From: an uncultured delta proteobacterium
GTDB lineage: Bacteria; Desulfobacterota; Binatia; UBA9968
Length of the DNA stretch: 64,000 nucleotides
Direction of reading: 5' to 3'
Assembly: GCA_963727625.1 (NCBI GenBank)
Contig: CAVSHR010000007.1
Location: 32,001 to 96,000 of the forward strand
Part shown: in pieces, positions 32,163-55,600 of the stretch
Layout: the number at the start of each line of letters is the position of its first letter
Numbering within the stretch: the first letter of the stretch is position 1
Position numbers and translations under genes: made by a program
Notes under the pieces: generated by a model
Databases searched by the model: none
What the model saw: the letters and a program-made list of their open reading frames with translations, nothing else
Told to the model about the DNA's origin: nothing

Positions 32163-32380
32163 TTGTCTTCCTGCTTTTCCATTTTCTTCCTCAGGCTAAG
32201 CGGCCTCATGTCGGTCCACACTTCTTTGATGTAGGCCAAGCATTCCGTCTCAGAGCCGCGCTTGCCTGTATCCTTCCAGCCAAGAGGATTCTCGCGGTCG
32301 ACACGCCAGATCGAGTACTGCTCTTCGTGGTTCACGACGACATTGAAGATTGTCCGGTCTTCCTTATCGTCCGTATTCAT
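32159..32380 (-). CDS. MbtH-like protein
   Basis: [12 protein letters not shown]...PLGW...[17 protein letters not shown]; ATGA overlaps on both sides. Confidence 0.95.
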
Positions 32381-35300: not shown

Positions 35301-38300
35301 CAGGGCTCAGGGTCAATCCCGGCAACTCGACCGCACGCATTGAAGCATTTTGCAGCACGAACATCACCTGAAAGAGCGGATTGCGGCTCAGGTCCCGCTT
35401 GAGACGCAATTCCTCTACTAGCCGATCAAAGGGCAGGTCCTGATGGCCATACGCCCCCAGACATACCTCGCGCACTCGCCGCAAGAGATCGCGAAAACTG
35501 GGATTGCCTGAAAGGTCCGTACGCATGACCAGTGCGTTGACGAAGCAGCCGATCAATCCCTCGATCTCCAGCCGATTACGGTTGGCGATCGGCGTGCCAA
35601 CGATGAGGTCGTCTTGACTCGTGTAGCGATACAACAAAACCTTAAACGCCGCCAAAAATGTCATGAACTGGGTAACCCCTTCCTGGCGACCCAGCGCTTT
35701 CAATCCCTCGGTCAGGGTCCTGGGCAACATCACCGATTGGTGCGCACCCCGGAAAGTCTGAAGAACAGGCCTGGGGTGGTCGGTGGATAGCTCGAGAAGA
35801 GAGGGGGCGCCGGCCAGTTGCTGCTTCCAATAGGCAAGCTGGGTCTCCAGGACTTCCCCCTGCAACCATTGTCGCTGCCAGTGGGCAAAGTCCGCATATT
35901 GGATCGGCAACTCAGGCAGCGACAAGGACTGTCCGGAGGAATAGGCTACATAGAGCCTGGCCATCTCTCTGATCAGTATTCCCGTTGACCAACCGTCGGA
36001 AACAATATGGTGCATCGTCAGTAGCCCCACATATTCCTCGTCGCCCAGCCGCAACAGGGCGACCCGCACGAGCGGGCCCTGGGACAAATCGAAAGGCCGC
36101 TCCGCTGCGTCGGTGACCAACCGCCGGACCTCGATCTCGCGCTCGGCCTCCGCCAGCTTCCGCAGATCAACTACCGGCAACTTGATCATCAAGGCCGGCG
36201 CGATAACTTGAGTTGGTCGTCCATCCACCATCGCAAAGGTGGTGCGCAAGGATTCATGGCGCTTCACGATTTCGTTGAGACTTTGCTCCAGCGCCGGCAA
36301 GTTGAGCGGCCCCCTGAGGCGGATAGCGGCAGGAATATTGTAGGCGGAGTTTCCCGGCTCCAACTGATCAATGAACCACAGTCGCTGCTGGGCGAATGAT
36401 AGAGGCAGGTTTCCGTCTCGTGGAATTGGCAAAATAGGAGGCGCCAGGAGGTTCTGCCCGGCACTTTGGGCTACCGCAATACTCTCAGCCAGGCCGGCCA
36501 CGGTGGGTACCTCGAAAAGACGGCGCAGCGGCAATTCCACCTGGAAGGCTTCGCGGATTCGCGACACGACCTGGGTTGCTAAAAGAGAATGACCGCCAAG
36601 GTCGAAAAAATTGTCGTATATACCTACGCGTTCAATGTCGAGGACCTGAGCCCAGATCTCCGACAGTAGCTCTTCTGCAGGAGTGCGGGGAGGCACGAAT
36701 TCCTTATCGAGTTCGGGCCGTGTTCGGTCGGGTGCCGGCAAGGCTCGGCGGTCTACCTTCCCGTTGGGCATCAACGGCAGGGCATCGAGCAGCACGAAGA
36801 GCGCCGGTACCATGTGCTCGGGCAGTTTCTCTTTGAGAAAACTGCGCAAGTCAGTGGTTGTGGGGACGGGGTCGCGGTCAGCGACTACGTAGGCCACCAA
36901 CCGCTTCTCTCCGGGAGCGTCTTCCGGAGCTAGGACGACAGCCTCCCGCACGGCTGGGTGTTGGTCGAGCGCTGCTTCTATTTCTCCCAGTTCGATGCGG
37001 AACCCGCGGATCTTCACCTGGTGGTCGACACGACCGAGGAACTCAATGTTCCCATCGGGCAGATAGCGGGCCAGGTCTCCGGTTTTATACAGGCGTGCTC
37101 CCGGCTCCTCGCTGAAGGGGTTGGGAACGAACTTCTCGGCTGTCAGCTCCGGTCGGTTGAGATAGCCTCGGGCCAGGCTCGCCCCGCCGATGTGGAGGTT
37201 GCCGGGGACGCCGAGGGGAACCGGGCGAAGAGCCTCATCCAGAATATACATGCGCGCGTTGGGTATAGGTCGTCCGATGGGAATTGTCGAATGAGCACTG
37301 ACCCCTTCGCATAACCAATAGGTTGAATCGATGATCGCCTCAGTCGGCCCGTACACGTTATACAGCTTGGCCCCAGAGCGGTGCTGGAATCGCATGACGA
37401 CTTGAGGCGGCAAGACTTCGCCGCCGCACATGACAGCACGCAAGGCAACGGCGCCGTCGAGCGCGGGTTCCTCCATGAGGAGCCGCAGCAGGGATGGAAC
37501 GCAGTGAAAAATAGAGATCCGTTGGTTACGGATGATCTCCGCTATGTAACGGCTATCACGGTGACCCTGAGCCTCGGCGATGATCAGACTTCCTCCTGCG
37601 ATCAGGGTTGGGAAGAATTCACGCCCCGCAGCATCAAAGGTGATGGGAGTCTTCAGAAGACAGCGATCCTTAGCCGACAGCTCGAGTCTGTCGGTTAGCC
37701 AGTCGAGGGTATTGCTTAGCCCGCAATGTTCAATCATGACCCCCTTCGGCTGTCCCGTTGAACCCGAGGTGTAAATCACATAGGCAGCGTTCCTGGCTGA
37801 TGTGCACCTGACCGCATTCTCCTCACTCTCCTGAGCGATGGCCTCCCACTCTGTGTCCAGGCAGACTACCTGAATTCGAGAATTGAAAATCGAGGATCGG
37901 GGGTCGCCATCTTCTATCCCTTCAGCGGAGTTTATCCTGAGCATGGCCGAAGGGCTCAGGACAGGCTTCGATCCTCGATCTTCGACTAGCCCCGCCAATA
38001 CTCGCTGCTGGGTCAAAAGCACTGGCGCCTGCGTGTCCTCCAACATGGAGGCCACGCGCTCTTTGGGATACGTCGGGTCCACTGGGACGTAAGCTCCACC
38101 GGCTTTGAGAATTCCCAGAAGCCCAATGACCATTTCCAACGATCGCTCGATACAAATGCCCACCAGCACTTCCGGGCCAACGTTCAGCGTACGCAGGTAA
38201 TGGGCCAATTGATTGGCACGGGCGTTGAGCTGAGCGTAGGTCAGCTGGCGGCCCTCGAACACAACGGCAACGTTGTCCGGCGTGCGCTCGACTTGTTCCT

Positions 38301-39726
38301 CAAACAATTGCTGGATGCACTTGTCTTCGGGAAACTCGGTCTTGGTATCGTTGAACTCGACCAACAGTTGCCGGCGCTCAGCACCGCTCACAATCTCCAG
38401 CTCACCGATCGAGGCTTCGGGATCGCGGACGACACTTTCCAGCAACGTCTGGCACTGTCCCGCTAGGCGCTGGATATCTTCGACGCGGAACAAGTTAGCA
38501 TCGTAGTGCAGCTCCAGGGTCGGAAGATCTTCGCTTTGCACACAGGAGAGCTTCAACTTGAACCGGTCAGCGCAAGCAAGTCGCCGGTGAATCGATAGCT
38601 TGACGGCTGGGGTGGTACAACCGGCGGGCTGTTCCTCAAATTCGAAACTAGCGGGGAAAAAAAGCGGCGCCTTGATATTCCCATTGGATCCGACGATTTG
38701 TTCCCAACTAAAATACTCCTGCCATTCGAGAACATCCCGTGCCGATTGATTAACCTGCGCCAAGAGTTCACTGAACTGAAGTTTTTTTTTCAGATGACAG
38801 TGAAGCGGCAAATATTTTGCCAGCGGCCCGATTGTCTCCGATAGCCCCTCATAGGTCCGACCATCGCAGGCCATCCCGACGATAATGTCTGACGAGCCGG
38901 TGAGACGCCAAAGCAGGGTCTGCCAGCAAGCCAGGAAGAACGCGGATGCCGATGCATCATACTTCCGTGTGAGTGTTCTGATCTCTGCTGCCGTATCAGG
39001 AGTAATCGTCGAGGTTAAAAAATGCGGGTCAAAGTGCGCAAGGTGTGTGGGTCCGGACGATGGACGTTCAAAGGGAAGCTGCAAGGTAAGAAGATTAGAG
39101 ATATTCTGCTTGCGCCAGTATTCTCTGCACGCTCTCGTGTCCGCTGACTCAAGCAACTCATTTTGCCATTCTGCGAGATCGGCGTATTGCATCGGTTCGT
39201 CGGAGGATCCCTCGCAACGTGCGCCGGCGGAATAGGCACGGCTGAGTTCACGCACCAGAGTCCCAAGCGATGCCGCGTCCGCGCATAGGGAGGATAGCGT
39301 GACAAGCAACATGGTCTTGTCTGGCGACAGAGTGACGATGGATAGACGCGATAGCGGCCCCTTCTCAAAGTCGAAGGGCAACCGGCCCGCCTCCTGAAAA
39401 AGCACTTCGATTCGCGCCTCTTGTTCGGGAGCGCCCCAACCGGTCAGATCGTGGCAATCGATCGATGGTAGGCTGCCGTCAGTTATAACCTGAACGGGAA
39501 TGGACATCCCCGGCAGGCAAATAAAGGTGGTGCGGAGGATCTCGTGTCGAGCGAAAACGCTGCGCAAGGCCGCTGCTAAAATCTTTGTGTCGAGATTTCC
39601 CTCGATCAGGACGGCGCACTGGCTACAATAAGGCCGGCCGGGGTCCTCTTGCTGCAACGACCACAGATGCTTTTGCTGAGGTGAAAGGCGGAAACCTTCA
39701 ATAACTTCCTGTTGTGATCCGGTCAT
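32377..39726 (-). CDS. NRPS: degenerate C (interface-like)-A-T-C-A-T-TE
   Basis: First C has SSLCAD instead of HHxxxD; two A domains (YTSGST, YGPTE, YKTGD, NGK); two GGHSL carrier motifs; second C HHIVSDG; TE GWSMG. Confidence 0.96.
33478..33981. repeat. Intragenic near-identical repeat (copy at 36694-37197)
   Basis: C-terminal parts of the two A domains are almost base-identical at an offset of 3216 bp. Confidence 0.92.
34762..34927. repeat. Intragenic near-identical repeat (copy at 38050-38215)
   Basis: N-terminal parts of the two A domains (NQLAHYL...YPKERVA) are almost identical. Confidence 0.9.
37871..37986. repeat. In-frame palindromic/heptamer insertion within A domain 1
   Basis: 11-bp IR ATCGAGGATCG/CGATCCTCGAT enclosing CCCTTC...CCTGAGC...GAAGGGCTCAGG; 33 extra aa relative to A domain 2. 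Confidence 0.8.
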
Positions 39727-39951
39727 AGCCTGCCATTACACCGTCGTTGGAGCTGTGGGATTTTAATGTACATTACAGCGTGGTCCTTTGGAAATTCTCG
39801 GCACGATCGGCTTCTCATATACCGGCCGTCGGTCTATCAACGGAAAACTAGCCCGATCTTCCTCTTTTTTGTTCCAGTTCGAAAATGGCGCGGCTTATTC
39901 CAGCTAATCAACAGCGTGCCGGTTAGATTCCGAAGCCAGAACTGGGACCGA

Positions 39952-40734
39952 CTACTCGTCTTCCCGAAGTAATTCATCAATGTAATGACTGATGCGATCC
40001 TTGTTGGAAGAGAGACTGGAAAACTGTTTCTCGCACACATCGCTGAATCGAGCCAAGACTTTGCGGTTGACTTCTTCCTGATCTTCAAAAATCGCAATGG
40101 ACTGGAACCGAAGCCCCCAACGCTCATATTGCAGCAGGCCGATAGTGGCGTCTCGAACTTTATCGTCGCCCGGAAGGGCTTGTACAAAGACCGGACGCTG
40201 CCTGCCATTGATATGGCAATCTACAATGTATTTTCCCTCAGGATCGTGCTCAGCATCGTGCCAGTCAAACGCGCGACGGGATTCCGGCACGTGACTTTCC
40301 ATAAAAGCCCGGAAGTCCTCCATGAAAGTGGACCTCACTCGTTCACGCGAAAGATAAGTGACGTCCGTGATTTTAAGTAAAGCCTGCACGAAGCTGTAGA
40401 GCGCGTCCCCATAGCGGTCATCTTTGATATCCACCGCCAGTTCGCCGCCTTGGTCGCTGACTGCAAACATCGACAAGGCGTTGGTAATAATTTTCTGCCT
40501 CGTCCCTCGTTGGAGATCCTTCTCGTCCATTTTATAGGTCAAGTGCATATAGGTGTGCCCCTCGTCCGAAAGCACCCAATGAGAGTTCTGACGCTTGAGC
40601 ACGATAACGAGATGATCCCCATCGTCAAACACAAACGGGGTAAAGACCTGGTAACGATCCATACCCTCAGACATCAAGTGTATGCGATCCGAAACCTTCG
40701 CTTTGAAATCTCGCTCGATAGTTTCAACTGACAT
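39952..40734 (-). CDS. DUF1828/DUF1829-like protein
   Basis: TPFVFDDGD...LSDEGHT N-terminal motif; C-terminal GKYIVDC.I...VFVQAL has a restriction-endonuclease-like pattern. Confidence 0.75.
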
Positions 40735-40748
40735 AGCAAGCCTCCAAA

Positions 40749-41222
40749 TCAGAGGAGAGACCCCTGAGTTCCCGGAGGTAGTTCAAACGCACAATCCTGC
40801 AACAAACACTGAATTGCCCCGCTCAAATCCGCATATCGATTGGTCGTTTCGGCATAGTGCTCTTCGGCGTAGCCTGCTTCCTGATAACGTTCGGTAGCCG
40901 TGTGGATGTGAAAATCGTAGAACGTGATCCCCTCGATACGGTTCGTGTGCTCATGACTACGTCCATTATAACGCCTTAGCCGAAATAACACACTGGAGTT
41001 TGGGATCGAATATCCAAGAATGACCGAAAAGTCGAGCGGATTAAAAACGCTTTGTCGCACAATAATTTGAAACTCCGAACCACTGGTTCCCGTAATGTCC
41101 AGCTCCCGTTCCTTATGGCCGCTCTTGGCCCGTAATTGAAGTCGCGATTGATAGTCGGAGGGCAGAGCTTTGGACTCTGAGAGCAGGCTAATAATCTTTG
41201 CGTCAGTCAACTGAATTGCCAT
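40749..41222 (-). CDS. Hypothetical protein, DUF6978-like
   Basis: LRRYNG..HEHTN...FHIH motif; 14 bp upstream of the DUF1828 gene. Confidence 0.65.
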
Positions 41223-41237
41223 CAGAGTTTTCGATAT

Positions 41238-41342
41238 CTATTCTTCAAGCACGCGTCCTGTCCACCTTTCGCGTAAAAATCCAAGATCGATAAAATCGTT
41301 ATGCCAGGCCCCGCTTGCCGCTGGGATATCATCCAGGTTCAT
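41238..41342 (-). pseudogene. Possible 5' stub of a PIN/VapC toxin
   Basis: ATGA overlap with the antitoxin stop; begins MNLDDIPA, then diverges with no DTN motif. Confidence 0.45.
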
Positions 41343-41581
41343 AAATTCCAAGCATCCTCTTCCTGGACCCGGCGGAACTGTTCGGGAAGTAGCTTCATCG
41401 GACGCTCGCAGAACACGTGGTACGCGATGTCACGTTCTTTGGAACTCGCGGCGCCCGGACTCAAATACTGCACCAGCGCATCTTGAATCAGATCGCTGAG
41501 GGGCCGTCCCTCTTCGGCGGCCTTGCGCTTGGCAAGGCGCACAATGCCTTCGTCAATTAACGTTGCGATTTTCTGTTTCAT
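41339..41581 (-). CDS. Ribbon-helix-helix antitoxin-like protein
   Basis: KQKIATLIDEGIVRLAKRKAAEEGRPLSDLIQDAL fits the RHH pattern. Confidence 0.8.
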   Translation of the reverse strand: MKQKIATLIDEGIVRLAKRKAAEEGRPLSDLIQDALVQYLSPGAASSKERDIAYHVFCERPMKLLPEQFRRVQEEDAWNL

Positions 41582-41664
41582 AGGAATTACTCCTTTGGCC
41601 CGAGCATTAATCGTGGTGCTAACATTTTGTGAATTCTGGTGTCGCTTGGATTGTTCAGCGTGCG

Positions 41665-44349
41665 CTAGCCAAACCGCCCCACCAACCCCGCCAGCGTCAT
41701 GTTTTCCGCGATCGCATCATGCGGAATGAGTGCGTACTTCCACGGCTTGCCGCCGTACGTCGCCGCGTGGGCGCTTGCCTGCTGACACCATTTAACCGCT
41801 GCTTCTTTCTTCGCGAGGACGTCGGCATCCTCCATCTGATTCTTCGCCTTAGGCTCCAGCATGAAGATCGAGTCTTTCGTCTCGGCTACGAAATCGGGCT
41901 GATACTCCAGGTGATCGGCGCCGGACTTATAAAAGATTTGAAACTGTCCCTTTGCCGGCTTGAACCATTTCTCCGCTTCGCGATCTAGGATCACAGCGAG
42001 GAGTCGCTCGGCTTCGGAGTGAAATTTTTCGACAGGATAGAGCCCTCGTTTAAAACCGCCGAAGAGATATTTCGCCATATTGGACTTGTCCGCTGGCGAT
42101 ATTCGAAAATCGCTCCTCGGCTCCGACTGCGCATAGGCGCTCTGTTTCAGCTCCGTAAAGCCTTTGCTGATCGACGACCTCGTAGTCCACAGCCGACTCC
42201 CAATAGTGCTTTTGCATCTGGACGTGAATGAAACGGGCGATTTCGCGCTGGTGCAGCCGCAGGACCTTCCGTGTGTCGTCGTCCGAAAGATAGCTTTTGA
42301 AATGCCTCACGGTCTGCGGCTGCGAGATCGTAGAGCAGATCGGCATGGCTGTCATAGGCTACATCGTCGAAGTCCACCAGCCCGCTGACGATATAGTCCT
42401 CCAAACGGGCCTCGTCGATCGCGCCTTCCCCAGGCCGACGACTTCCGTTGCCGCCGGTCCTGAGATAATGCACCCAAAGCTCCTCCGAAGGCGGCTGAAG
42501 ATTCAGACGCTGCCAGATCGAGGGTGAACTGCTTAAACCCCGAACGAACCTCGCCTTTGGGAACTACCAGGATGCGCGGGATGTCGATGGTCTGTCTGAA
42601 TCACCAGTCGCTCGTCTTTGCGACCACAGCGGCGATGTCCGGCGGCTTGCGTCACGCCTCCAGTTCCAATTGTGACGGACGATACTGTGCTGGCGACTTC
42701 GCGAACCAGCTCGGCCTGGATTTCGGGGCCTCGTCAGATACGACACGCTCGGCAGCTTCTTGTGGCTGATTTTCCAGGGTTCGGATCACTTCGCGCGTAA
42801 CTTGAGCCACGCGTTCTTCCTCCGGCGTCGCAAAAACCTTGGGCTCGTCTGCGCCCGCGATTTCCGTCGTCGCTGGAAGCTGCCCGCCGGCTTAATGCCA
42901 AGCATACTATCGAGGCGTGATTGCGACACCACCGTCTTACTTTTCTGCTCAAGCTCGCCACCATCGAGCACCACCGCTTGCAGCCGAATCGGCGAATCCG
43001 ACCGATTCGCTTCATTAATAATCTCCTGGAACTTATCGTGAGCCACGATATTGAGCCGGTCCACTGCCGGAACGCCCGTGCGCTTGCCGTAAGGCAGGCG
43101 CAATCCGCGTCCGATGGATTGCTCGATGAGTATCCGGGCGTTGGCGGCACGCAGCGGAATGATCGTGTAGAGGTTGGTCACGTCCCATCCTTCTTTGAGC
43201 ATATTCACGTGGATGACGATCTCGGTCGGCTCCTCTGTGTGTTCCACCTTTAGTAGGCGCTCGACCATCTCGTCTTCTTCCGCGCCCGTCTTGCTCGAAT
43301 CCACCTGAATCACCTTGTCTTTGTAGCGGCCCTCGAAGAAATCATCGCGCTGGATCAACTGCATCAAGTGGCTGGCATGGGTCGTATCCCGCGCGATTAC
43401 TAACACAAACGGTTTCACGATCGGCTCGTCGCTTTCCCGTGCGTACGTTTCAAGCAACACCTTCGTCTGCTCGTGCAGACGCACGCCGTCTTCGAGCTTT
43501 AGGCGCTCGATTTCCTCAGACGACATTCCCGCTGGGTTAAAGTCCTTGCGCGTGACGACGGCGGGCTCTTTAACGAAGCCATCGGCCATCGCTCTCCCGA
43601 GCGGATAGTCATACACAACATTCTTGAATGCCACTGGGCCTTTGCTCGTTTCCACGAACGGTGTCGCAGTCAGTTCCAAGCCCATCAATGGCTTCAGCTC
43701 GTTGATTGCCCGTACCCCCGCGGACGCCCGATAGCGGTGCGATTCGTCCATCAATAGGACGAGATCCGGCAGCCCTGCCAAATAGTCGAAGTAACTTTCA
43801 CCGATGTACTCCGACAACCGTTTGATGCGCGGCGATTTACCGCCACGTACTTCCGAGTTGATCTTCGAAATGTTGAAAATGTTCACCTTGCACCGGATCA
43901 ACTCGTCGAAAAGCGTCCGCGCTCGCGACTCATAGTTGTCACCGGTGATAATTTCCGGTGCGTCCGTAGCGAACTCCGCGATGCCTTTAAAGACATACTT
44001 CGCCGTGCCGGGCGTAAAGTCAGCTATCAGTTTGTTATAGATCGTCAGGTTCGGTGCCAATACAAAGAAATTGTTGATGCCGTGGGCCAGGTGCAGATAG
44101 CTGATGAAAGCGCCCATGAGCCGCGTCTTGCCGACGCCGGTGGCGAGCGCGAAGCACAGCGACGGAAATTCGCGCTCAAAGTCCGTCACCGTTGGGAACT
44201 CGCTGCGAATCGCGTCCAACGCAGCTGCAACGTCCGCGCCCTTCTTGGGTGGCACGATCTCCGTGATCGCGGTCGAGAATCTCCAGCGAGTGGCGCTGGG
44301 GTGGCCGCAGGCTGAGCCGACCGGCGATGGCGTTAACGTGGTGGTTCAT
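41665..44349 (-). pseudogene. res: Type III restriction subunit Res, multiply frameshifted in this sequence
   Basis: MNHHVNAIAGRLSLRPPQ start; ATGVGKT, DESH, QSIGRGLR; C-terminal YQPDF..EPK. Indels near 44270 and clustered in about 42080-42880. Confidence 0.88.
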
Positions 44350-44358
44350 AAGATGTGT

Positions 44359-44523
44359 TTACGCACCGCTCGGTCTACGAGTTCGTTTAGGCGTGGCAAC
44401 TTTGACTTTTCTCGTCTTGCACCAAAATTCAGTCAGGTCGTGGGTGTCCCAGAACTTTCCGATGTCCGCATATGAGCACGCTTTAGAAATCGAACTTTTA
44501 CCTCGTCGAATGTTCCCTCTCAT
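44359..44523 (-). pseudogene. Truncated CopG/BrnA-like antitoxin
   Basis: 54 aa ORF below the ORF-track cutoff: SSISKACSYADIGKFWDTHDLTEFW; the DNA-binding C-terminus is missing. Confidence 0.6.
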
Positions 44524-44526
44524 GAT

Positions 44527-44952
44527 TCAGCCGCCGGGCTGGCGTTTGCGCAGCTCCGCTTCTTTAAGACCATTCTTCAACAAGTAACGCTTAATTCGGT
44601 TGAGAAACTCTCGGCATCGCCGGCACTCACCGCTCGCGTCCTCTTTGGAAAAGACTGTCTCGACGTCGTAGTCGGCTGCCAAGCGATCGTCGAGGCTCTC
44701 AACGAGATAAGCCGACCACTCGGGTTCGATTTCGCCCGGCTTAACAAGATGTAAGCCGAACATTCGCCTGACTGAGGCATGGCTTTCGGCTGCCACATCG
44801 TGGACCTGGAGGGCGGCCTTCGCTGCATGAAGAATTGCGTAATAGGCCCTCGATATTCCGTCCGCATAGCAACGGTTTCGAGTCAAAGTCTCCGCGGCTC
44901 GAAGCGCCTCGCGCGCCCTGCTCCATTCCGCCAAGACCATATTCCGATTCAT
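44527..44952 (-). CDS. HEPN domain protein
   Basis: SRAYYAILHAAKA, SHASV, RLAADYD; ATGA overlap with the MNT gene. Confidence 0.88.
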   Translation of the reverse strand: MNRNMVLAEWSRAREALRAAETLTRNRCYADGISRAYYAILHAAKAALQVHDVAAESHASVRRMFGLHLVKPGEIEPEWSAYLVESLDDRLAADYDVETVFSKEDASGECRRCREFLNRIKRYLLKNGLKEAELRKRQPGG

Positions 44953-45296
44953 GCGACGCGCACCCCGTCGCGGTCCACCGCCTGACGAAAGCTCGATCCG
45001 CTTCGCTTCCGGCTTTCCCACTCGTCCTCGGTGTACGCGATGATAGATGGCAAAACATCCGCAGTGGCGGCCAGCAAGTAGCCGATTCGCCGTAGCGTTC
45101 GTTTAAGGCGCCCAGCCTTATTCTTAACAATCAAAAGCACATCCAGATCGCTTTCAGCATGGGCCTGCCCCCGAGCCTTTGACCCGTAGATCAGCATCTC
45201 ATGAACGGCGTCCGGATATTTTTCATTAAGCGCTTTTCGATAAGAATCGATCCACGCTCTTTCCGCCTTCGTAAGTTGGAGGACGTGATTTTTCAT
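44949..45296 (-). CDS. Minimal nucleotidyltransferase (MNT)
   Basis: YGSKARG....SDLDVL (GS...DxD). Confidence 0.9.
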   Translation of the reverse strand: MKNHVLQLTKAERAWIDSYRKALNEKYPDAVHEMLIYGSKARGQAHAESDLDVLLIVKNKAGRLKRTLRRIGYLLAATADVLPSIIAYTEDEWESRKRSGSSFRQAVDRDGVRVA

Positions 45297-45318
45297 CTTC
45301 CTTTGCCCCCTTTGTCCG

Positions 45319-46945
45319 TTAGTCTCCCTCGGCCGATAGCAAGTCCATCTGCCCGCGCGGAGGCGGCGCCTTCGGCAGATTCTCCACCTTCAGGCTGTAG
45401 TCGTCCTTGCCCCACTCGCAGCGCGACAGCACGGCCTTGGGAATTTTCTTCACCGTCAGATTGCCGTAACCGTCCTTACGACCACGGAAGGCGCTGCATA
45501 CAACCAGCAGCGATCGCTCCGGACCAACCTCGTCGCTCAACTGCTGAAGTTGGTCGTGGCTCAGGTTCGCTGTCGTGACGTAAATGAAATCCCGCTCGGT
45601 GGAATGGCCGTGCTGCCAATAGACCGTATCGCTCGGCGCATAGACGAATCCCTCCAGCTTGCACACCGCCTCCGCCAACATCGCGGCGTTGAACTTCTCG
45701 CTGATGACCCAGTTGCCCCACTTGTCTTTTTCTAGCAGCGACGGCGAAAGGCGGTAGTAACGGAAGCCCCCGCCGCCGTTCCAGCCCACCGCCTCACTGA
45801 TCCCGCCTTGATCCGTTCCGTCGAGGACTTTCTTCATTCGCGGGATGATGTGTGTGTGACAATGTTCGCCCAGCTCCACCATTATCCAGCGTCGGCCCAT
45901 CTTGTGTGCCACGGCACCCGTCGTGCCGGAACCTGCAAAGGAATCGAGAACCCATTCACCTCGGTTGGTAACCATCTCGATGATATATCTCAACAGGCCT
46001 TCCGGCTTGGGGAACTGAAATTTATTCTCTTGTCCAAATAGCTCAACGCTTTCGTAAGTCCCGTGCTGCGTGTAAAACCCGTCGATTATCGATGTCGGTT
46101 TGGTCTGCCGCTCTTCGCCGTCGTCGTCACGAAGGTATTGCTTAGGACACCGTGACCTTCCCCTTCCGCTCAGTGAAGACGATTCCATTTGCGTAGATTG
46201 CCTTTTTTACGCGATCTTCAGACCACTGCCATTGTTTGTCAGGCCAGATATCCTGACCTTTGTGTTTGATTGGATACCGGAGGTTCGGGCGTTCGTCGTT
46301 GCTTGTTGTTCCCAGAGGCTGGAGCCGATACGGACCGCGCGAGTCGTAATGCTCGTCCTTGAACTTGTAGTACTTGAGCGCCTTTTCATTCGGAGGCAGG
46401 AACAAAGGCGGAAGTTGCTCGATCTCCTTTGCGTAGCAGAGAATGAATTCATTCTGGTTGACAACGTAACGAGACTTAGCGCCTCCGCCGTAACTTTTCT
46501 TCCAAACAAACAACTCCACGCGATTTACTCGCCCAAACACTTCATCGAACAGCAGACCTGCGTGGAACAGTTCGACGTTATCAATAAAGCATAGGATGAG
46601 CCCGTCACGAGTGAGCAGCCGTTTCAATGATTCCAGACGGTCGCGCACCAAAGACAGCCATAGTGAATGTTCGACACTGTCGTCGTAGTGAGTAAAAGCC
46701 GCACCCGTGTTATAGGGCGGATCGATGCAGATGCACTTGATCTTGCCGGTAAATTCCTGTTCGAGCGCTTTGAGAGCAAGAAGATTGTCGCCGAAGATGA
46801 GACGGTTATCGAACAGGTCGTGATCGGTCACCCGGTGCGGCGCGTGGTAAGACTTCTCCGGGTCTTCGAGCAGGATCCGCGGCTCAAGCCTGGGCCGGTT
46901 CTCCTTCCCGATCCAGGTGAGTTCGAGCTTGGTTTTGTTGCTCAT
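45319..46945 (-). pseudogene. mod: Type III adenine methyltransferase Mod, one frameshift near 46143
   Basis: DPPY in the 5' ORF; FPKPE and DSFAGSGTT in the 3' ORF (beta-class order). Confidence 0.9.
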
Positions 46946-47114
46946 TTCAGTGGATCCAACGCAGCTTTTTCACTGGATGCTACATAGGCACCACAAGGCC
47001 AACTCTTTTGAATTCAATGAGTTGTCTTGCGCGTGCTTGCCGCTAAGCAGCCTCCAGTTACATCGTGTTACATACGCGCAGAAATAAGTCTACGATGGAG
47101 AAAGTCTAACTCCG

Positions 47115-47834
47115 TCAGTCACGCCACGCGTCCTCTGGTTCTAAGGCCGTTGCCGCCGGATTCTCAAGATCGAATTCCCAACGGGCCGGGTTGTCGTGAA
47201 TGTATTGCCGGATGCGATTCAAAGATTCTTCGTCGCGGACGATGTGTTCGTAGTAGTTGCGTTGCCACAATCGGCCTGGAAAAGGTGTCCAGCCTGATTG
47301 TTTGACGGCGTCTATGAATCGTTTTGTGGTCAAGGTTTTGAACCGATGCATGATGTCGGGCAACGATAACGTAGGGGCAACCCCCTGTGGTTGCCCCAAT
47401 CCGGCGGGTGGATTTTTCGTAGGGGCGCCCCCCTGTGGGCGCCCGGTAGCTGGGCGGGCACCACGGCTTGTCGCAATCCTCGACCCCGCATCCGGGCAGG
47501 CACGGGGGCCTGTCGTAACACTCAACCCCGCATCCGGGCAGGCACGGGGGCCTGCCCCTACAAGAACGACGATGCCGTGGATGTGGTTGGGCATCACAAC
47601 AAACACGTCGGTTTTTATACCCGCGTAATGCGCTGGTAATTCGTCCCACGCGGCTTGCACGATCCATCCGGCATCGTTCAACCGCATGGCGCCATTCTCG
47701 ATCTCGCCGAACAAGCACATTCTGTCTTGCGTTACGACGGTCACAAAGTACATTCCCGCTTGGTTGTAGTCATACCCCTTTAAACGAATTGACCGTCGGT
47801 GGTGTTTGTCTGAGTCGTATTTCATACCGGCCAT
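47115..47834 (-). mobile_element. REP-associated tyrosine transposase (Y1/HUH) gene
   Basis: HHRRSIRLKGYDY, YFVT, MPNHIHGI (HUH), WQRNYYEHIVR, YIHDNP. Confidence 0.92.
47371..47561. repeat. GTAG-family REP cluster inside the transposase ORF
   Basis: GTAGGGGCAACCCCCTGTGGTTGCCC (47371), GTAGGGGCGCCCCCCTGTGGGCGCCC (47419), inverted GGGCAGGCACGGGGGCCTGCCCCTAC (47536), plus two degenerate copies at 42-bp spacing. Confidence 0.9.
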
Positions 47835-47847
47835 TATCTAATCGCAC

Positions 47848-50698
47848 CTAGGCTACGCTCCATCGGACCGAAAACAAGTGCGTCTGCGATATCTGTTGCT
47901 GCAACTTTCCTTCGATCTCTGCAATCAGCTGCTCCCGTCGCCGGTCGATTTCGTCTTGGGCATCGAAGAGGGAGCGGCGTTTGGCGTTGCGCTGGGACTC
48001 CAGCGCTTTGATCTGCTTCTGACCGGCGAGTTTTTCTTCCAGCGTGAGTGCTGCCGTCGCAGCGCGGCGGGCTTCTTTGATCTGGCGATCGATTTCTTTT
48101 ATCTCGCGCTCCAAGCCGACTTTGAGATCCTCGGCCCAGGAGTCGAGTTTTTCAGTCTCGATACCGAAGAAGCGGGCGTTGCGTTCGGAGATTTCCCGCT
48201 GGATTTCGGTCTGGCGGCGCTGGGTGATCGTTTGAAGGTCGTTGGCAGGGGAACAGAGAGAAGATTGCTTGGTCTTGCCGGGCAGAGACAACAAACGACG
48301 TGCAACTTCTTCGTCCACAGTTTCACCCTTGTCGGTGACCGCAGCGAAGATCATGTGATCTTCGGCTTGATCCAGTGATTCAACGCTGAGCTGTGACACA
48401 CATAGATAACCGCTTTGGCCACGCAGGGGTTGGAGGGCGCTGATCTTGCCGACGTAAGCGTCGTAGTCGAAACTGATCTCGGCAGGCGGCAATTCCCGGT
48501 TCTTGGCTTGGGTGATGATCGCTTCGGCGAGCGGATGGCTTAGGCGGTACGTATGCGCATCGCGCGAGCGGCGCGGCAATTCGTAAAGGCCGACGGGATC
48601 TCACCTGGGAAAGGCGAAGTTTGCAGTCGAAAGGAATGGTCAGCTCAAAAACTCCGCATAGTCCTTCAGCTCGTATCGGGATAGCCGCATTAAGCAGCTG
48701 CTCGTATCGATCCAAGAAATCTTTTGCCGCCGCATCCCGCACGCGGAGCTTGTTCCTAACGTCGTCATCGAAATTTTCGAGCAGTTTCTGCTTTGTCTGC
48801 GTCATCGCTTCGTTGATCTCAAAACTGAGTTCGAGCTGAAGCTGATCGAAGGCGGTCTTGATCTCGTCGGTCTTGCGGCAGCGCTGGTAGATGTCGTTGA
48901 TGCGCTTCTCGAAGTCCACTCCGCTTTCGATCGCGCCGAGCACTTCGTCGCTGGCGCCGAAGACGCCTTCGAAAAGTTGGAACTTTTCCGACAGCAACTG
49001 GTAAACGCGCCGGTCTGCGGCGTTCTTGCGATTGAGGAAGTTGACGACTACGACGTCGTGCCTCTGCCCGTAGCGGTGGCACCGGCCGATGCGTTGCTCG
49101 ATCCGCTGGGGATTCCAAGGCAGGTCGTAGTTTACGACGAGCGAGCAGAACTGAAGGTTGATGCCCTCCGCGCCCGCTTCGGTGGCGATCATGATCTGGC
49201 CCTGCTCGCGGAAATAATCCACCAGGGCGGAACGCATATCGGCGGTACGCGAGCCCGTGACGTGGTCGGTGCCCCGGTGACGTTCCAGCCAAGCGGCGTA
49301 GATCGCCTTGGAACCGTCGTCGGTATTGGAGCCGTTGAATAGGACGATGCCATCCTTCCACGGACTGTCACCCAATACGCGCAACAGATAGCTTTGAGTG
49401 CGGCGGGATTCGGTGAAGATGATCGCCTTTTGCTCGGCGCCGAGTTCCACGGCTTTCTTCATGGCGATGGCGAGCGCCTTCAGCAACGCTTTGCCCTTGG
49501 CATTGTGATCGATCGAAGTGGCGAGACGGGCGAAGTTGTCGAGATCGGCGATCTCCGCCTCAATGGCGGCGCGGTCGGCTTCGGAAAGCGGTGCTGGAGG
49601 CTGGTCGTCGTCCCATTCCTCCGCGGTTTCGTCCAGGGCCTCATAGTCTTGGTCGAGTTCCTCTTCCAACGATTCTTTTGGCTCCTGTTTACGCAGCTTC
49701 GCCTTAAGTCGTGTCGAGATCGACGTGAGCGCGCCCGCTATGGCGAAGCTTGAAGATGCCAGCAGCTTGCGCAAGACCAGCGTCATTAGCGAGCGCTGGC
49801 TGGAGGGAAGCGCTTGGAGGTTTGGCCGGCGCAAATACTCCGAGACGAGTTCGTAGAGTTGGTCTTCGCTTTCTTCCGGGGTGAATTCTTCAAGCAGGGG
49901 CAGCCGGTTGGTGTACGGAATGTAGGATGTGACCTGCCTGCGCAATGTGCGGTGGCAAATCGGCTTCAGACGCGCCTTGAGAGTTCGGAAAACCTGGTCC
50001 TGAGTCAGGTTGGCGAACTGCTCACGGAAACTCTTGAGATCGCCGAAGGCGTGCTCGTCGATGATGCTGGCGAGACCGAAGAGTTCGAGCAACGAATTCT
50101 GCAGCGGCGTGGCCGTCAGGAGAAGCTTGTGGCGTCCCTGCAATGCCAGTTTGAGAGTGTTCGCGATGACGTTCGACGGCTTGTAGACGTTGCGCAGCCG
50201 ATGCGCTTCGTCGATAACCACGAGATCCCAAGCCGCGTTCGCAACGTCTGACGCCTTGCTGCGCGCAAAGTGATAGGAGCAGATGACGACAGCGTCCTTC
50301 ACCTCGAACGGCTTGAAGACCCCTTGTTTGATCGCGTCGTTGTAGGACTTGGTCTCTAAAATCCGGCAAGGCAGAAAAAACTTCTCCGTCAGCTCCTGAT
50401 GCCACTGCTTGCGCAGATTGGACGGCACGATAACGAGAATGCGCCTCTTACGCTCGGCCCATCTCTGTGAAAGGACAAGACCCGCCTCGATGGTCTTTCC
50501 CAACCCGACTTCATCGGCCAGCAACGCGCCCTTCGAAAGCGGCGAGTTAAAGGCGAAAAGCGCCGCGTCCACCTGGTGCGGATTGAGATCAACCTGCGCA
50601 CTGGCGACGGCTCCCGCAAGCTTCTCGATACTGTCCGACGAGCAGCGCTTGGTCAGCTCATACGCGTAATATTTAGCGTGGTAGGGAGTCAGGTCCAT
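47848..50698 (-). pseudogene. SNF2-family helicase, frameshifted at about 48590-48695 in this sequence
   Basis: LADEVGLGKT, DEAH, LTATP, EQRIGRCHRYGQ; coiled-coil C-terminus continues in another frame. Confidence 0.88.
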
Positions 50699-51054
50699 TC
50701 AGTCGGGCTTTAGTCCGATTGTTCATTCGAGCAAGAAATGACTCGACTGAAGCTAATGAAATCTATCGTTACTTCGGAAAATTCTTTGGTGCAGTGGTGC
50801 GGCGCTCTAATCGTCGTACCGAACTTGGCCAAAATTTCTCGGTAGTCTACTGCTATCCGTGGGTTTGGGGCAAGGGTGAGCCTGGAGGATAAGGATAAAG
50901 GCGAAAGGATAAAAACAAGCGCGAGGCGGAAGGCGAGGACTGGAAAGCGGGAGCGGTATGAAAGGTTAAGGCAATAGGACCTTCGGAGGGATAAGGGATT
51001 AAAGATTTCCTAGTTCACTCCTAATCCGACATGTACACTTTCGCCGCGCTTTTC

Positions 51055-52641
51055 TTATGTTCTCCTGTTGATGCCGCTGTTTCCGCTGAGTTGCGATCCG
51101 ATCACAGGCTTGCGCTTGACCGTCTTTAACTTCTGGAGATTGGCTTTTCTGCACTCTTTTCGCGCCGTGACCTGTTGTTGCCTGTCGGCCTCGGCGAGAG
51201 TTTCTTTGAGTGCGCTCAACTCGGCATTGGGCTGGGTCACGATATGACGTAGAAGCATTTCAAAATGCTCTGCCATCCGGATGATCGCAGCAGAATCAAA
51301 CAGATCTGAGTTGTATCGTATGGAGGCAGAAAACGATCCTGCCGTTTCGATGATCAACATTACGAGATCCAGAGCGGCTGCGCGGCGTTCCAGGGAGAGG
51401 GACTCCAGCACAAGCCCGCCAGAATTCATCCGGAGCCCGGTTTCGCCCAGCGCGAACGCGGGTACTGCCTGTTCTGCGAGCCGGTGCGGTTTATCCAGTG
51501 CGAACATGACCTGGCAGAGCGGCGAGCGGCTGAGGTCCCGGGTCGGCCGCAGTCGTTGGACCAAGCGAAGGGTAGGGTAATCCTGATGCTCGAGAGCCGC
51601 CAGTACCGTCTCGCGCACCCGACCAAGAAACGCCCGGAAAGTTGGATTGCCCGAAAGATTCGCTCGCAAGACAACAGGATTGGCGAAGAAACCCACAATC
51701 CCTTCAAACTCGGCCCGGCTCCGCCCGACCATAGGAGACGCCACCAGGATGTCTTCCTGACCGGTGTGGTAATAAAGCATCACTTCGAACGCCGCCAGAA
51801 GGACCATGTACAGAGTTGTCCCTTCGGTCTTGGCGCGCGCCTTGAGCTGCCGAGCCAGTGCATCGTTTACGGTGAAATCTTGCTGGGCGCCGCGAAACGT
51901 CTGAATCGGCGGTCGAGGCCGATCGGTCGGAAGATCGAGCACGGGTAACTGACCGGCCAATTGTTTCTTCCAGTAGGCCCATAGCCGCTCACCTTCCGGA
52001 CTCGCCAACATTTCGGTCTGCCAACGAATAAAGTCCGTGTATTGCAGATCAAGAGGACGTAGAGCCGCTGGTCGGCCCGCCTTTTCCGCAGGGTACAGCA
52101 CGCCAAGCTCATTCAGGATCACCGCGAGGGACCAGAAATCAACCACGATATGGTGCACGATCAGCACAAGGATGTGTTCCTGTGCCGAGCGGGTGAACAG
52201 ACTGACCCGCAGTACAGGTCCTCGTTCCAGATCAAAGGGGCGCTGAGTTTCTTCGACCAGCCGGTTCTTGAGCTCATCCTCGCGCCAGGTTGAGGCGTCG
52301 ATCTCCTCGAAGTGGACCTTCAGGCGTTCGTGTATTTGTTGTACGGGTTTGCCAGAACGCACCGCAACCGTGGTCCGCAGCGAAGGATGGCGATCCACTA
52401 GCGCCTGAAATGCGCGCCGCAGGGCCGGAGTGTTTACATCGGAAGATATGCGCGCCGCAAAACTGACATTGTACATCGAGGTCTCCGGCGCGAACTGGCA
52501 CAGGAACCATATTCCCTGCTGATTATCGGAGAGAGGATGAAACGATTTGGCCCCGCTCGCCTTTTTTCGCAGGAGCTGCGCGAGAAGAGCGCGCTTTTCA
52601 TCGGGTGAAAGATCGGCAGTTCGCTGGGATGTCTGGCTCAT
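51055..52641 (-). CDS. Stand-alone NRPS condensation domain protein
   Basis: LSDNQQGIW, RHPSLRT, HHIVVDFWS, YWKKQL; helical N-terminal docking segment; basic C-terminal tail. Confidence 0.92.
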   Translation of the reverse strand: MSQTSQRTADLSPDEKRALLAQLLRKKASGAKSFHPLSDNQQGIWFLCQFAPETSMYNVSFAARISSDVNTPALRRAFQALVDRHPSLRTTVAVRSGKPVQQIHERLKVHFEEIDASTWREDELKNRLVEETQRPFDLERGPVLRVSLFTRSAQEHILVLIVHHIVVDFWSLAVILNELGVLYPAEKAGRPAALRPLDLQYTDFIRWQTEMLASPEGERLWAYWKKQLAGQLPVLDLPTDRPRPPIQTFRGAQQDFTVNDALARQLKARAKTEGTTLYMVLLAAFEVMLYYHTGQEDILVASPMVGRSRAEFEGIVGFFANPVVLRANLSGNPTFRAFLGRVRETVLAALEHQDYPTLRLVQRLRPTRDLSRSPLCQVMFALDKPHRLAEQAVPAFALGETGLRMNSGGLVLESLSLERRAAALDLVMLIIETAGSFSASIRYNSDLFDSAAIIRMAEHFEMLLRHIVTQPNAELSALKETLAEADRQQQVTARKECRKANLQKLKTVKRKPVIGSQLSGNSGINRRT

Positions 52642-55600
52642 TCATTAACTTTCTCATCAGCTAACATATCGGTGAGCAATGAATCCACGTTCTCATCCGA
52701 AAGCTGATCAAGGTTTGCCAACAGCTGTTCGGCATTTCCCTTGTCGATGTGCTCCTGTTGCGATGTGACAGCCGGGGCAAGAGGCGGCGACGGGCTGGAG
52801 CCCTCTGCTGTCAGTTGATCGAGCACCTGTGTTACCGCCTCGTCGACGCTAAAACCCTGAAGAAATTTGACCACCGGAACTTTCACCCCCAAGTCAATCG
52901 CGATCCGGTTTCTCAGTTCGACGGCCATCAGCGAATCCAATCCCAGATTACTAAGCGGTTGCTGCAAGTCCAGTTTAGCTGCGGCAAGCCCGAGCACACG
53001 AGCCACTTGCGCGCTCAGGTAGGACTGCAATAACTCGTGGCGCTCGCCTGGCTCCGCAGCTAGGAGGGCAGCGGAGGTCAGCCCACTTTTTTCTCCCGGA
53101 CGGTCCGTTTGCTGTCGGACCTCGGCTTCCTCAATTGCAAGTTGAGACAGTAGGGGCGGTTCGCTGCCCGCCGGGTAAGACTCGCGGTACTGCTGCCAGT
53201 CGACGGGCACCGCCACGACCTGGATTGCGCCTTGCCCGAGCAGACGTTGCAGCACTTCCAGCGCTTGCTCGGGCGCCATGCTGGTGATTCCCAGAATCGC
53301 AAGGCGCGCGGCGAGGCGCTTCCCCCCAGGCGTATCGGCGAAACCCAGATTGCCCCAAGCGCCCCAGTTGATCGTCAAGGCCGGCTGGCCTTGAGCTCTC
53401 CGGTGATGCGCCAGAGCATCCAGGAAAGCATTGGCGGCGGCATAATTCCCCTGGCCAGCCTGGCCCAAGAGGGAACCCGCTGAAGAGAAGAGCACGAAGA
53501 AATCCAGGGGGGCGTCCTCAAGCAGATGATGCAGCAGCCACCCACCCACCATCTTGGGCTGCAAAACCGTATGCAGTTGGGCGGTATCGAGCTGCACCAG
53601 CAGTCCGTCCTGTATCACTCCCGCCGCGTGCACGACACCGCGGATCGGCGGCCAACCCTCACGGCGAAACTCGTCGAGAAAGCCGCTCAACTGTGCTTCA
53701 TCCGCCACATCCACCGACGCCAGATGCACCGACGCTCCCGAGGCTTCCAGTTCCTGAATGGCAGCGACCTGCCGGGCCAAGCGACCGCCTGTTTCCAGCG
53801 AGCTCCAACTCGAGCGTGGAGGAAGTTTCGTGCGTCCCAAAAGGATCAAGCGCCGTGCCCCTTGCTCGACCATCCAGCGGGCGACCGAGAGGCCGAGCTC
53901 TCCCAGTCCGCCGCTGATGAGATAGCTGCCGTCGGAGCGCCACCTGATCTGACGTTCCCGGCTCGCAGATCGGCGCTTGCGCACTAAACGGGCCACGTAG
54001 CGCCGCCCTTTACGGAACGCCAGTTGATCCTCGCCAGCGGGAGTGGAGATTTCATCGCACAACTGCTGAGCCGTAGTATCTCGCGGCGATGCCGTCGGAT
54101 CGAGATCCACAAGTCCGCCCCACAGTGTAGGGAGTTCTTGAGCAATGACGCGACCCAATCCCCAAAGAGGCGACTGAGCTACGGCCAGCGGCGCGGGCTC
54201 TTCCCCTGCCGCTTGAGCACCACGCGTAGTTAGCCAGAGCCGGGGGAGATCGCGCGATTCCGTTCGCGCCAGTTCCTGGACCAACAGGAGGACACTGCCG
54301 CAGCCCAGAGTCTGGGCTGCATTCAGAGAGGCCGCGGTGGTCTCCTGTGGGCGAGGAGCATCAAGACTCCAGAGATGGACAATCCCACGGCAGACTGGCT
54401 GATCAGATTCCAGTGCCGCCTCGACAAGCCGCCGGAGGTCTTCCGGTTTTTCTGGGCGGATGCGAAAATGCACACCGTCTATGTGCTCGTACGATTCCCC
54501 GCGAGAAACCAGAATGGTCCCTTGTCCCTGTGCTTCCAGCAACGCTGCCAGCCCCTCTCCCACGCCGCCATTGTCGGTAAAGATCAGCCAGCTCCCCCGA
54601 CTGGCCGGCGAGGAAGTTTCCGCAGCTACTTGTCCTTCGACGCGTTCTTTGGGCTGCCACTGAAACTCATAGAGCCAGTCGTCGAGATCCGTCTCAACAG
54701 CGCGCTGTGGGTCGTCGCCCAGATATTCGAAGCGAAGTCCGAGAATCTCGACAGCCACGCGCTCAGCTTCATCGAGGAGCCGCACTTCTCCCGTTACTGT
54801 ATCAGCGTCGCGTTCTTGGACATGGGCGTTACTCCAGAGATGCAGGCCGGGACGACCGCAGACCCGGAGCTGATCTATGCGGGTCGGCATGAAAATACCT
54901 TGTTTGCCGTTTTGAGTTGCTTCGGCGGCTACCGCTGCTCCCATAATCTGTAAGCCGGCGTCCAGAACCGCCGGGTGGATTCGGTAGGCGTTAAATTCTG
55001 TATCCGACCCGTCTGGAACCTTGACTTCACCCAGCACCTCTCCATTGTTTCGCCACAACTGTGCGATGCTCTGGTAAAAGGGACCGTAGTCGATACCGCT
55101 TTCGCGGAGTCTCAGATAATAGTCCTGGCCGGAGACTTTCTCCGAGCATCGACTTTGGATCTCTGCGAGCGTCTCCCTGCCAGAAACAGGGAAAGTGCTG
55201 TTATCCTCTAGAGGACAGGCGTTCCCGGTCGCATGCAGCGTCCACGATTTACTGGCGTGGTCTCCCGGGCGGCTGTAAATGTGAAAAGACGCCCCTCCAT
55301 CGGTGCCGGGAGAAAGGATAACCTGAATCGTGTGGGGTTTGTCCTCAGGTAAAAAAAGCGCCCTGGCAAATTCTACATCCTTCAACGCAAAGGATTGTTC
55401 GCCGAAGACCTCAACGGCGGCGGCCAGGGCCATCTCCAGATAGGCCGAGGCGGGCAGCACGGCAACCCCTTGGATGCGATGGTCGTCCAGATATGGCAGG
55501 GCTCGCTTGTCCAAAGTGAATTCCCAGAAGTGGCTTCCTGCGGGATGGGCCGACGTGAAGTGGTGGCCGAGAAGAGGGTGAGTCCCAATTGCGCTCCGCG

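Follow-up and report, generated by a model that had tools for sequence, protein, structure and literature searches.

A probable insertion hotspot for defence and addiction genes between the condensation and NRPS genes of a FAAL-PKS-C-NRPS-TEII operon

The stretch of DNA analysed here, 64,000 nucleotides from an uncultured delta proteobacterium (assembly GCA_963727625.1, contig CAVSHR010000007.1, positions 32,001 to 96,000; hereafter the window), carries a biosynthetic operon of lipopeptide type that lies on the minus strand throughout. From position 60470 down to 31404 it reads fatty-acyl-AMP ligase-type adenylating enzyme (FAAL), polyketide synthase (PKS), stand-alone condensation (C) protein, an 11-kb insert, nonribosomal peptide synthetase (NRPS) and type II thioesterase (TEII). 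The window is probably one allele of a multi-allelic hotspot at which defence and addiction genes have been inserted, at a permissive boundary between the C gene and the NRPS gene. Close relatives include two alleles in which this boundary is empty, and together with the window there are five in which it is occupied (0.9, 1.7, 5.5, 11.3 and 18.3 kb). When the cargoes of these alleles were compared all against all, only their ends, referred to here as shells, were common. A first-pass annotation of the window had described the insert as a single clean event with limits at 39766-51037, marked by a possible 7-bp duplication. The empty-site alleles bear out the insertion between two genes of one operon, but they place its ends elsewhere, and the insert sits within conserved shells that are common to alleles with unrelated cargo.

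Empty and occupied alleles of the C-NRPS junction

Related loci were drawn from a scan of one genome per species, which gave 41 loci, and from metagenomes scanned with the first C-like domain of the window's NRPS as the probe, where 80 related loci were compared. No orthologue of the C gene was found in the 60 genus and family relatives searched, where the best match was 46%. In most of the 41 genome loci the cluster is of the FAAL-PKS-NRPS-TEII type, and its C domain, 65-83% identical, is fused to an A domain. A C domain of 65-90% identity, mostly fused in this way, was present in 38 of them, and on this basis the free C gene could be read as what truncation had left of a fused NRPS. That reading is ruled out by 27 metagenome loci with a C-then-C'-A-T... 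layout, in which a stand-alone C gene is followed directly by an NRPS gene that begins with a second C-like domain. The junction is tight in 23 of these 27 loci, with a projected distance of 12-94 nt, and in its native form the C stop either overlaps the NRPS start codon (ATGA) or precedes the ATG by about 10 nt. A protein search returned more than 100 homologues of the stand-alone C protein, of 519-556 aa and 67-92% identity.

The closest empty-site alleles are two metagenome contigs, L058 and L061, whose flanking DNA is 86-87% and 90-94% identical to the window, respectively. In both, the C stop TGA lies within ATGA, and the junction reads ...CTCRGCGGTAAYGGCAGKCTATGACCGG... Homology to the window detected by blastn ends at 51076 for L058 and at 51080 for L061 and resumes at 39739 for both, with an ambiguous overlap of 4-8 nt. 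Placed by eye, the breaks fall after ...CTCAGCGG (51083) and before TAATGGCAGG (39738), with one more G (39739) ambiguous. Since the breaks relative to L058 and L061 are 51083|51082 and 39740|39739, the insert extends from 39740 to 51082 and measures 11,343 bp; no repeat beyond two to three ambiguous bases accompanies these breakpoints. The final eight codons and the stop of the C gene (51082-51055) come from the insert, giving the C-terminus NSGINRRT* instead of NGRL* or NGSL*, and just 13 native bases are kept 5' of the NRPS start. The ATGA translational coupling from C to NRPS is lost in the window allele. The spacer of about 63 bp that the first-pass annotation expected after excision has no counterpart in the empty site, where the two genes overlap at ATGA, and empty alleles with other breakpoints were the very observation that it had named beforehand as the refutation of this detail.

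Occupied C-NRPS junctions were found in three genome assemblies and four metagenome contigs, with cargo that differs between them. Among close relatives, the C gene and the NRPS gene flank the site at 78-94% identity in the window, L017, G123, L060 and L062, as they do in the empty L058 and L061. L017, a Syntrophobacteraceae metagenome-assembled genome (MAG) of the window's family, holds 5.5 kb with PIN-domain and DUF1206 genes. The 18.3-kb island of G123 (loci L018, L019 and L149) encodes PBECR2-like, HigB/HTH, BrxF, BrxC, PglXI, IetA, IetS, BrxHI, PglZ and BrxA proteins; all six PADLOC families of BREX type 3 (BrxF, BrxC/PglY, PglXI, BrxHI, PglZ, BrxA) are matched in order, the Iet pair is embedded among them, and in this long-read MAG four of the genes are split in two. 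The smaller inserts of L060 and L062, 0.9 and 1.7 kb, contain DUF2934 and small membrane open reading frames (ORFs) with two transmembrane segments, and no known defence gene. Two alleles of a more distant lineage, L068 and L099, carry about 0.55 kb. None of the 12 insert proteins of the window had a match in the 41 and 80 related loci.

The shells are of graded length. On the C side, the outermost 103 bp of the insert (50980-51082) are shared over their full 103 bp with L017, over about 62 bp with L060 and L062, and over 32 bp with L018. On the NRPS side, the shell occupies 39740-39847, of which 39740-39779 form a new 40-nt leader of the NRPS gene that is common to L017 and L019 and in part to L062; the remaining 68 bp (39780-39847) are 96% identical to L017 5459-5526, 2.4 kb further in within L017. 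Among the matches listed from 123 genomes of the order, the left shell appears nowhere else except in L017's own genome, and it is absent from the rest of the genome studied here. These nested shells point to an old founding insertion whose interior was replaced or expanded several times. What is found at the junction, namely constant flanks, empty as well as varied alleles, defence-rich cargo and no hallmark of any single mobile element, corresponds to a defence hotspot; it corresponds neither to a transposon or insertion sequence with target duplication nor to an integrase-borne island with its recombinase, attachment site and tRNA.

The heptamer ATGTACA does occur at 39766-39772 and at 51031-51037, as first described, but its surroundings do not support a target duplication. 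The right copy lies 27-33 bp inside the insert and is part of a 12-bp palindrome, TAATGTACATTA, in the conserved NRPS leader; the stretch containing it, GCTGTAATGTACATTAAAATCCCACAG, is also the leader of L017 and L019, where it stands beside other cargo, and L062 has AATGTACGG at this place. The left copy, 45-51 bp away from the true breakpoint, falls within the left shell; it is missing from L017, L018, L060 and L062, which read CGTAC-TG, GGTTTG, GTGTCT-TG and GTGCAC-CG, respectively, at its position. ATGTACA occurs five times in the window against 2.16 expected, a count reached in 9 of 100 shuffles. The two spacers have five different 7-mers and no 8-mer in common. When the full spacers were shuffled 5000 times, some common 7-mer arose in 96% of trials, and for the 60-nt ends the figure was 13%; the shared ATGTACA is within chance. 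A long, decayed target duplication, sought by local alignment of the left tail of the insert with the 5' end of the NRPS gene, was rejected (2000 shuffles per pair, p 0.06-0.9 over 15 comparisons). No significant terminal direct or inverted repeats were detected between the insert ends, and Rfam (E up to 0.1) and tRNA scans over 39000-52000 returned no match.

Origin of the alleles and alternative explanations

The division of labour between the two flanking proteins offers a reason for the tolerance of this site. The HHxxxDG motif has an established role in condensation domains. The free C protein has the active-site motif HHIVVD at residue 163, the first C-like domain of the NRPS has SSLCAD where HHxxxD is expected, and the second C domain has HHIVSDG. 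Because the motif is intact in the free protein and replaced in the first NRPS C-like domain, we infer that the first condensation is carried out in trans by the free C protein, which would account for the tolerance of insertions where the two polypeptides meet. Pairwise dN/dS values, occupied-occupied pairs included, ranged from 0.15 to 0.25 in the C gene and from 0.25 to 0.38 in the first NRPS domain; between the window and L017, both occupied, they were 0.21 and 0.33. Such low values, also in occupied pairs, indicate that C and NRPS stayed under purifying selection with DNA between them.

The probable history starts in a Syntrophobacteraceae-like clade, in which the tight junction was opened between ...CTCAGCGG and TAATGGCAGG... 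The first inserted DNA left the shells behind, as a new eight-codon tail and stop for the C gene and a new 40-nt leader for the NRPS gene, and the interior now differs from allele to allele: a DrmD-like gene with type III restriction-modification (R-M) genes, an MNT-HEPN pair, a ribbon-helix-helix (RHH)-like ORF, a 157-aa ORF and a DUF1828 gene in the window, and elsewhere HigBA with BREX type 3 and IetAS, PIN-domain genes, or small membrane genes. The site would be permissive since it parts two polypeptides that work in trans, and once the coupling was broken, extra co-directional DNA would be cheap. Cargo would be retained only in the direction of the operon and without strong terminators, so that the NRPS gene could still be transcribed. 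Entry of the cargo would have been by illegitimate or cassette-level recombination, not by a dedicated integrase, and the alleles would have spread through homologous recombination in the conserved flanks. Small pairs resembling toxin-antitoxin (TA) modules may persist as addiction modules.

The orientation of the genes fits this picture. The earlier statement that insert and cluster share a strand holds for every cluster gene from FAAL to the thioesterase and for all 12 insert ORFs, which are on the minus strand; 15 of 15 ORFs scanned in G123 and the family-bearing ORFs of L017, L060 and L062 likewise lie on the operon strand. The cargo has a single, weak terminator-like site on that strand. 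Co-orientation and the scarcity of terminators are consistent with a need for read-through into the NRPS gene, without proving such a need.

Several observations weigh against the hotspot interpretation or limit it. Co-orientation is in part expected, since the genes of a cassette are co-oriented anyway, which leaves roughly nine independent units, and the promoter and terminator scans were at background, with 4 against 5.1 expected and 14 against 13.7 expected. The joins between shell and cargo that are specific to the window (about 50980 and 39848) rest on one assembly. The best public read run contained just 7% of the sampled words, and contigs from four public runs (85% likeness) belong to relatives, with none of the listed pieces bridging either junction, a result that speaks neither for nor against the joins. 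In the public runs X1 and X2, contigs of relatives of about 92% identity show a cluster of 1-nt indels relative to the window at 42171-42763, and part of the decay described below for the restriction gene could be local consensus error. Finally, the flank tree is a star in which just the ingroup and the pair L060+L062 are supported, and the empty L061 is no further from the window than any occupied allele; a tree of this shape leaves room for site-specific insertion on several occasions, or for precise excision.

A family of site-specific mobile elements would make use of that room. The shells would be its conserved ends and the cargo its variable part, and integration would be repeated and excision precise, through a recombinase acting in trans, for instance a Xer-type enzyme on the TAATGTACATTA palindrome, the core of which we take to resemble the centre of dif sites. 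In its favour, the five occupied alleles have identical outer breakpoints and shells at both ends, and the flank tree does not place the empty alleles as an outgroup. The absence of an integrase, already remarked on in the first-pass annotation, extends to the cargo ORFs scanned in the window, L017 and G123, among which no integrase or recombinase family was matched apart from the RAYT-like Y1/HUH ORF of the window (47115-47834), and this would fit a recombinase encoded elsewhere. We nevertheless consider this explanation unlikely. The palindrome is present at one end only, the left heptamer is not kept in the four alleles compared above, the right end of L062 reads AATGTACGGT, and the two insert ends have no significant repeat in common. 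Nor does the restriction of the left shell, among the matches listed from the 123 genomes of the order, to this junction and to L017's genome suit an element end that integrates repeatedly, and the nested shell lengths (32, about 62 and 103 bp) fit successive internal replacement better than a fixed end.

The hotspot interpretation can also be taken further, to a version that we hold with little confidence. The C-NRPS junction would then be a selected landing pad, at which co-directional modules are kept because they are transcribed with the lipopeptide operon, so that immunity is coupled to the expression of a secondary metabolite; as post-segregational locks, the TA and R-M modules would guard a horizontally roaming cluster against deletion, and the hotspot, free of a recombinase of its own, would travel from host to host with the cluster.

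An assembly artefact, with cargo mis-joined to the operon in a metagenome-derived genome and frameshifts that are consensus errors, is distinctly improbable. In its favour, the genome has 6.3% contamination and 15 contigs, the 1-nt differences from relatives are clustered as described, and many genes are split in related long-read MAGs. Against this, four or five independent assemblies show both outer junctions (C-shell and shell-NRPS), the inner shells of 68 and 103 bp adjoin the flanks without a break in L017 as well, some 17.5 kb of adjacent cluster genes are free of frame breaks, the frameshift sites are not long homopolymers, and the cargo is present just once in the genome. A single recent transposition or insertion of 11 kb, with ATGTACA as its target duplication and the Y1 transposase-like ORF as its possible agent, can be dismissed almost outright, as the empty alleles have other breakpoints and no 63-bp spacer, the right heptamer persists in alleles that have other cargo and no left copy, the repeat is within chance and, to our knowledge, Y1/IS200-type enzymes produce no target duplication.

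Cargo genes and decay of the defence cassette

The 12 insert ORFs, all on the minus strand, were annotated with PADLOC, Pfam and NCBIfam. Nearest the C gene is a DrmD-like SNF2 helicase gene (47848-50698), present as two ORFs at 48380-50698 and 47848-48579; PADLOC assigns it to DrmD at 6.9e-203, and its NCBIfam DISARM_DrmD_b score, 685 bits, is under the cut-off of 950. It is followed by the RAYT-like Y1/HUH transposase ORF (239 aa; Pfam Y1_Tnp, 8.3e-7), which has NHIH and YYEH motifs and scores 67.5 bits with NCBIfam REP_Tyr_transpos, under the cut-off of 80. Inside this ORF, at 47370-47561, REP-like palindromes (CGTAGGGGCAACCCCCTGTGGTTGCCC and relatives) occur in direct and inverted orientation and are translated in frame as GPRACPDAG repeats, between the HUH (NHIH) and Tyr (YYEH) motifs; contigs from public metagenomes stack up on the 26-nt palindrome arms, and the letters that separate the arms vary (joint 47396 to 47536).

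The next genes belong to type III R-M families. The Mod methyltransferase gene (45316-46957) comprises ORFs at 46142-46945 and 45319-46188, which match PADLOC MTase_III over profile positions 1-238 and 339-559 of 575. The Res gene (41668-44349) is a remnant of at least three ORFs (42786-44255, 42050-42355 and 41665-42078), three of which match PADLOC REase_III. Between Mod and Res sits a TA-like pair: an MNT-type nucleotidyltransferase of 115 aa with a GSx10DxD motif (44949-45296; Pfam NTP_transf_2, PADLOC PDC-S09) and its partner, a HEPN-domain protein with an Rx6H motif (44527-45021; Pfam HEPN, 2.5e-14). The two genes are adjacent and have both domains and both motifs of an MNT-HEPN (type VII) TA system, of which they are a putative pair; the NCBIfam MntA score of the MNT gene is 25 bits, under the cut-off of 60.

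Towards the NRPS gene follow an RHH-like ORF of 80 aa (41339-41581; weak DUF6364 match), the DNA of which is conserved in many genomes of the order, an ORF of 157 aa without a family match (40749-41222), and a DUF1828 protein of 260 aa (39952-40734; Pfam 6.5e-27), which is the PADLOC candidate PDC-M24B (1.9e-22). Over the start of the 157-aa ORF and upstream of it, about 200 bp (41098-41321) have 85-89% matches in several genomes of the genus and are present in three or four copies in G021:C48; this stretch may be a small repeated element.

The description of the cargo as anti-phage-type is upheld by its families (DrmD, MTase_III, REase_III, PDC-S09 and PDC-M24B by PADLOC), but not by the state of the DrmD, Mod and Res genes, which are broken. 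The MNT, HEPN, RAYT-like, RHH-like and DUF1828 genes, in contrast, have open frames. The breaks were mapped by tblastn with open homologues from the same order, an 888-aa DrmD (G101) and a 596-aa Mod and 905-aa Res (G106). The DrmD-like gene has one frameshift near 48692-48729, with the G101 protein aligning in two frames, and Mod has one near 46144, with the 80-81% identical G106 homologue also aligning in two frames. Res has frameshifts near 44268, 42317 and 42173 and in-frame stops at 42788 and 42566, and its G106 homologue aligns in four pieces and three frames. Neither Mod nor Res is thus full-length, as a type III R-M system would have them. All seven lesions fall in DrmD, Mod and Res, which make up about 7.2 kb, and in some 17.5 kb of neighbouring cluster genes there are none. 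From these sequences, the defence function of the R-M/DrmD cassette has probably been lost in this genome.

Pieces of the cargo have 70-90% DNA matches scattered among genomes of the same order, among them 85-88% for DrmD (G079, G017) and 84% for Mod (G012). Heavily deleted DrmD-(RAYT)-Mod-Res remnants were observed within 2.4 kb at L147 (G008:C42) and within 1.8 kb at L148 (G115:C211). The scattered matches and the repeated remnants indicate that the cassette circulates and decays within the order. An apparently intact relative, L146 (G106:C51 2281-10601), encodes an AAA_13/SMC-like ATPase of 911 aa, Mod of 596 aa, a DUF1016/YhcG PDDEXK nuclease of 423 aa and Res of 905 aa. The gap between Mod and Res is a variable slot, holding the DUF1016/YhcG nuclease in G106 and MNT-HEPN in the window.

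The DISARM core consists of DrmA, DrmB (DUF1998) and DrmC plus DrmD or DrmMI. No match to DrmB or DrmC was obtained among the 12 ORFs, and DrmA gave just a weak secondary match on the SNF2 ORF; because DrmA, DrmB and DrmC are missing, the cargo is not a DISARM system. It resembles DISARM class 1 in that a DrmD-like SNF2 helicase adjoins an N6-adenine methyltransferase, and type III R-M in its Mod and Res families. It departs from both in lacking DrmA, DrmB and DrmC, in having Mod split from Res by MNT-HEPN, and in that all three large genes are broken.

Related hotspots and the surrounding operon

Four published reports describe comparable arrangements. The core defence hotspots cDHS1 and cDHS2 of P. 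aeruginosa have very variable region sizes, consistent flanking genes and no single class of mobile element, and their authors propose transfer via homologous recombination in the conserved flanks (PMC10250203). The junction described here is likewise a variable region between constant flanking genes; unlike cDHS1 and cDHS2, which lie between core chromosomal genes and beside a non-coding RNA (PMC10250203), it is located in an accessory biosynthetic operon, where a stop and a start codon overlap. Its cargo, moreover, is all co-directional, and the sample comprises only seven occupied alleles. Defence hotspots of the E. coli pan-genome also have fixed positions that are empty or variously filled by strain, but their cargo is largely on prophages, integrative and conjugative elements and transposons (PMC10121019), for which no hallmark was seen in the alleles here. 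The mobile or allelic R-M units of Furuta, Abe and Kobayashi (2010) resemble the present cargo in being inserted without obvious mobility genes and in the swapping of system type at one locus, from type III to type I+IV in their case and between type III/DrmD and BREX in ours; the long target duplications or flanking inverted repeats of their units (PMC2853133) were sought here and not found. Around lanthipeptide clusters, too, R-M and other defence genes adjoin biosynthetic clusters; that co-localisation is a statistical neighbourhood within 40 kb of clusters for ribosomally synthesised and post-translationally modified peptides (PMC12715929), whereas the genes described here stand between coupled genes of a single assembly-line operon, for which empty alleles are available.

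Relative to these described systems, what is new is that the site lies within an assembly-line operon where stop and start overlap, that its cargo is strictly co-oriented and that empty alleles are at hand. Descriptions of defence hotspots usually place them between core genes or on mobile elements, and this one would be inside such an operon. Empty, small and large alleles make it possible to test how far a PKS-NRPS operon tolerates 1-18 kb of foreign genes between coupled genes, whether defence genes are expressed from the cluster promoter, and whether addiction modules stabilise biosynthetic clusters. Genome mining is affected as well: cluster callers may split or mis-score such loci, and a free C gene that stands 11 kb away from the NRPS gene can easily be taken for a fragment.

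The operon itself begins with the FAAL gene (58668-60470; Pfam AMP-binding, 3.5e-64), an orthologue of which is found 5' of the PKS gene in related loci. The type I PKS (52638-58664) is an open frame of 2008 aa with the domains ACP-KS-AT-DH-KR-ACP, and its L018 orthologue is 86-91% identical. Both genes that border the insert are open frames, in agreement with the first description of them as intact: the C gene (51055-52641; Pfam Condensation, 1.3e-105) encodes 528 aa, and the NRPS gene (32377-39726) encodes 2449 aa with the domains C'-A-T-C-A-T-TE, its L017 and L019 orthologues being 86-88% identical. The final cluster gene is that of the type II thioesterase (31404-32162; Pfam Thioesterase, 2.5e-46). 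All five genes are on the minus strand.

The surroundings of the cluster differ among relatives. An MlaE/STAS segment (window 29376-31084, corresponding to L018 1-1709) lies 3' of the thioesterase gene in the window and, inverted, 5' of FAAL in G123, and in G123 and L059 the thioesterase side runs on into a segment corresponding to window 27534-26208. The different placement of these two segments indicates that the cluster's surroundings were rearranged.

Some NRPS genes of related loci have structures of their own. The NRPS of L058 is without one module, its homology covering window 39739-36584 and then 34009-32066, an apparent in-frame deletion between repeated A/T regions. In L096, positions 1-2693 include a stretch 98% identical to window 39549-39088 in which homology begins at NRPS residue 60; upstream of that residue, in place of the NRPS start, are a sugar-transferase gene and a small TA-like pair, an arrangement that could be due to 5' truncation, rearrangement or a chimeric contig. 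A Limisphaerales MAG (L023, 6473-7670) has a gap of about 1.2 kb between the PKS and NRPS genes of a related cluster of the fused type, which may be another occupied boundary. In G123 (L019, C2 about 544428-560400), two tandem NRPS genes follow the island. One is window-like (88%), and the other starts with a C domain that is 88% identical to the stand-alone C protein and is fused to a different A domain. The same contig holds the 5' 1.5 kb of the C gene, together with 40 bp of the PKS end, twice.

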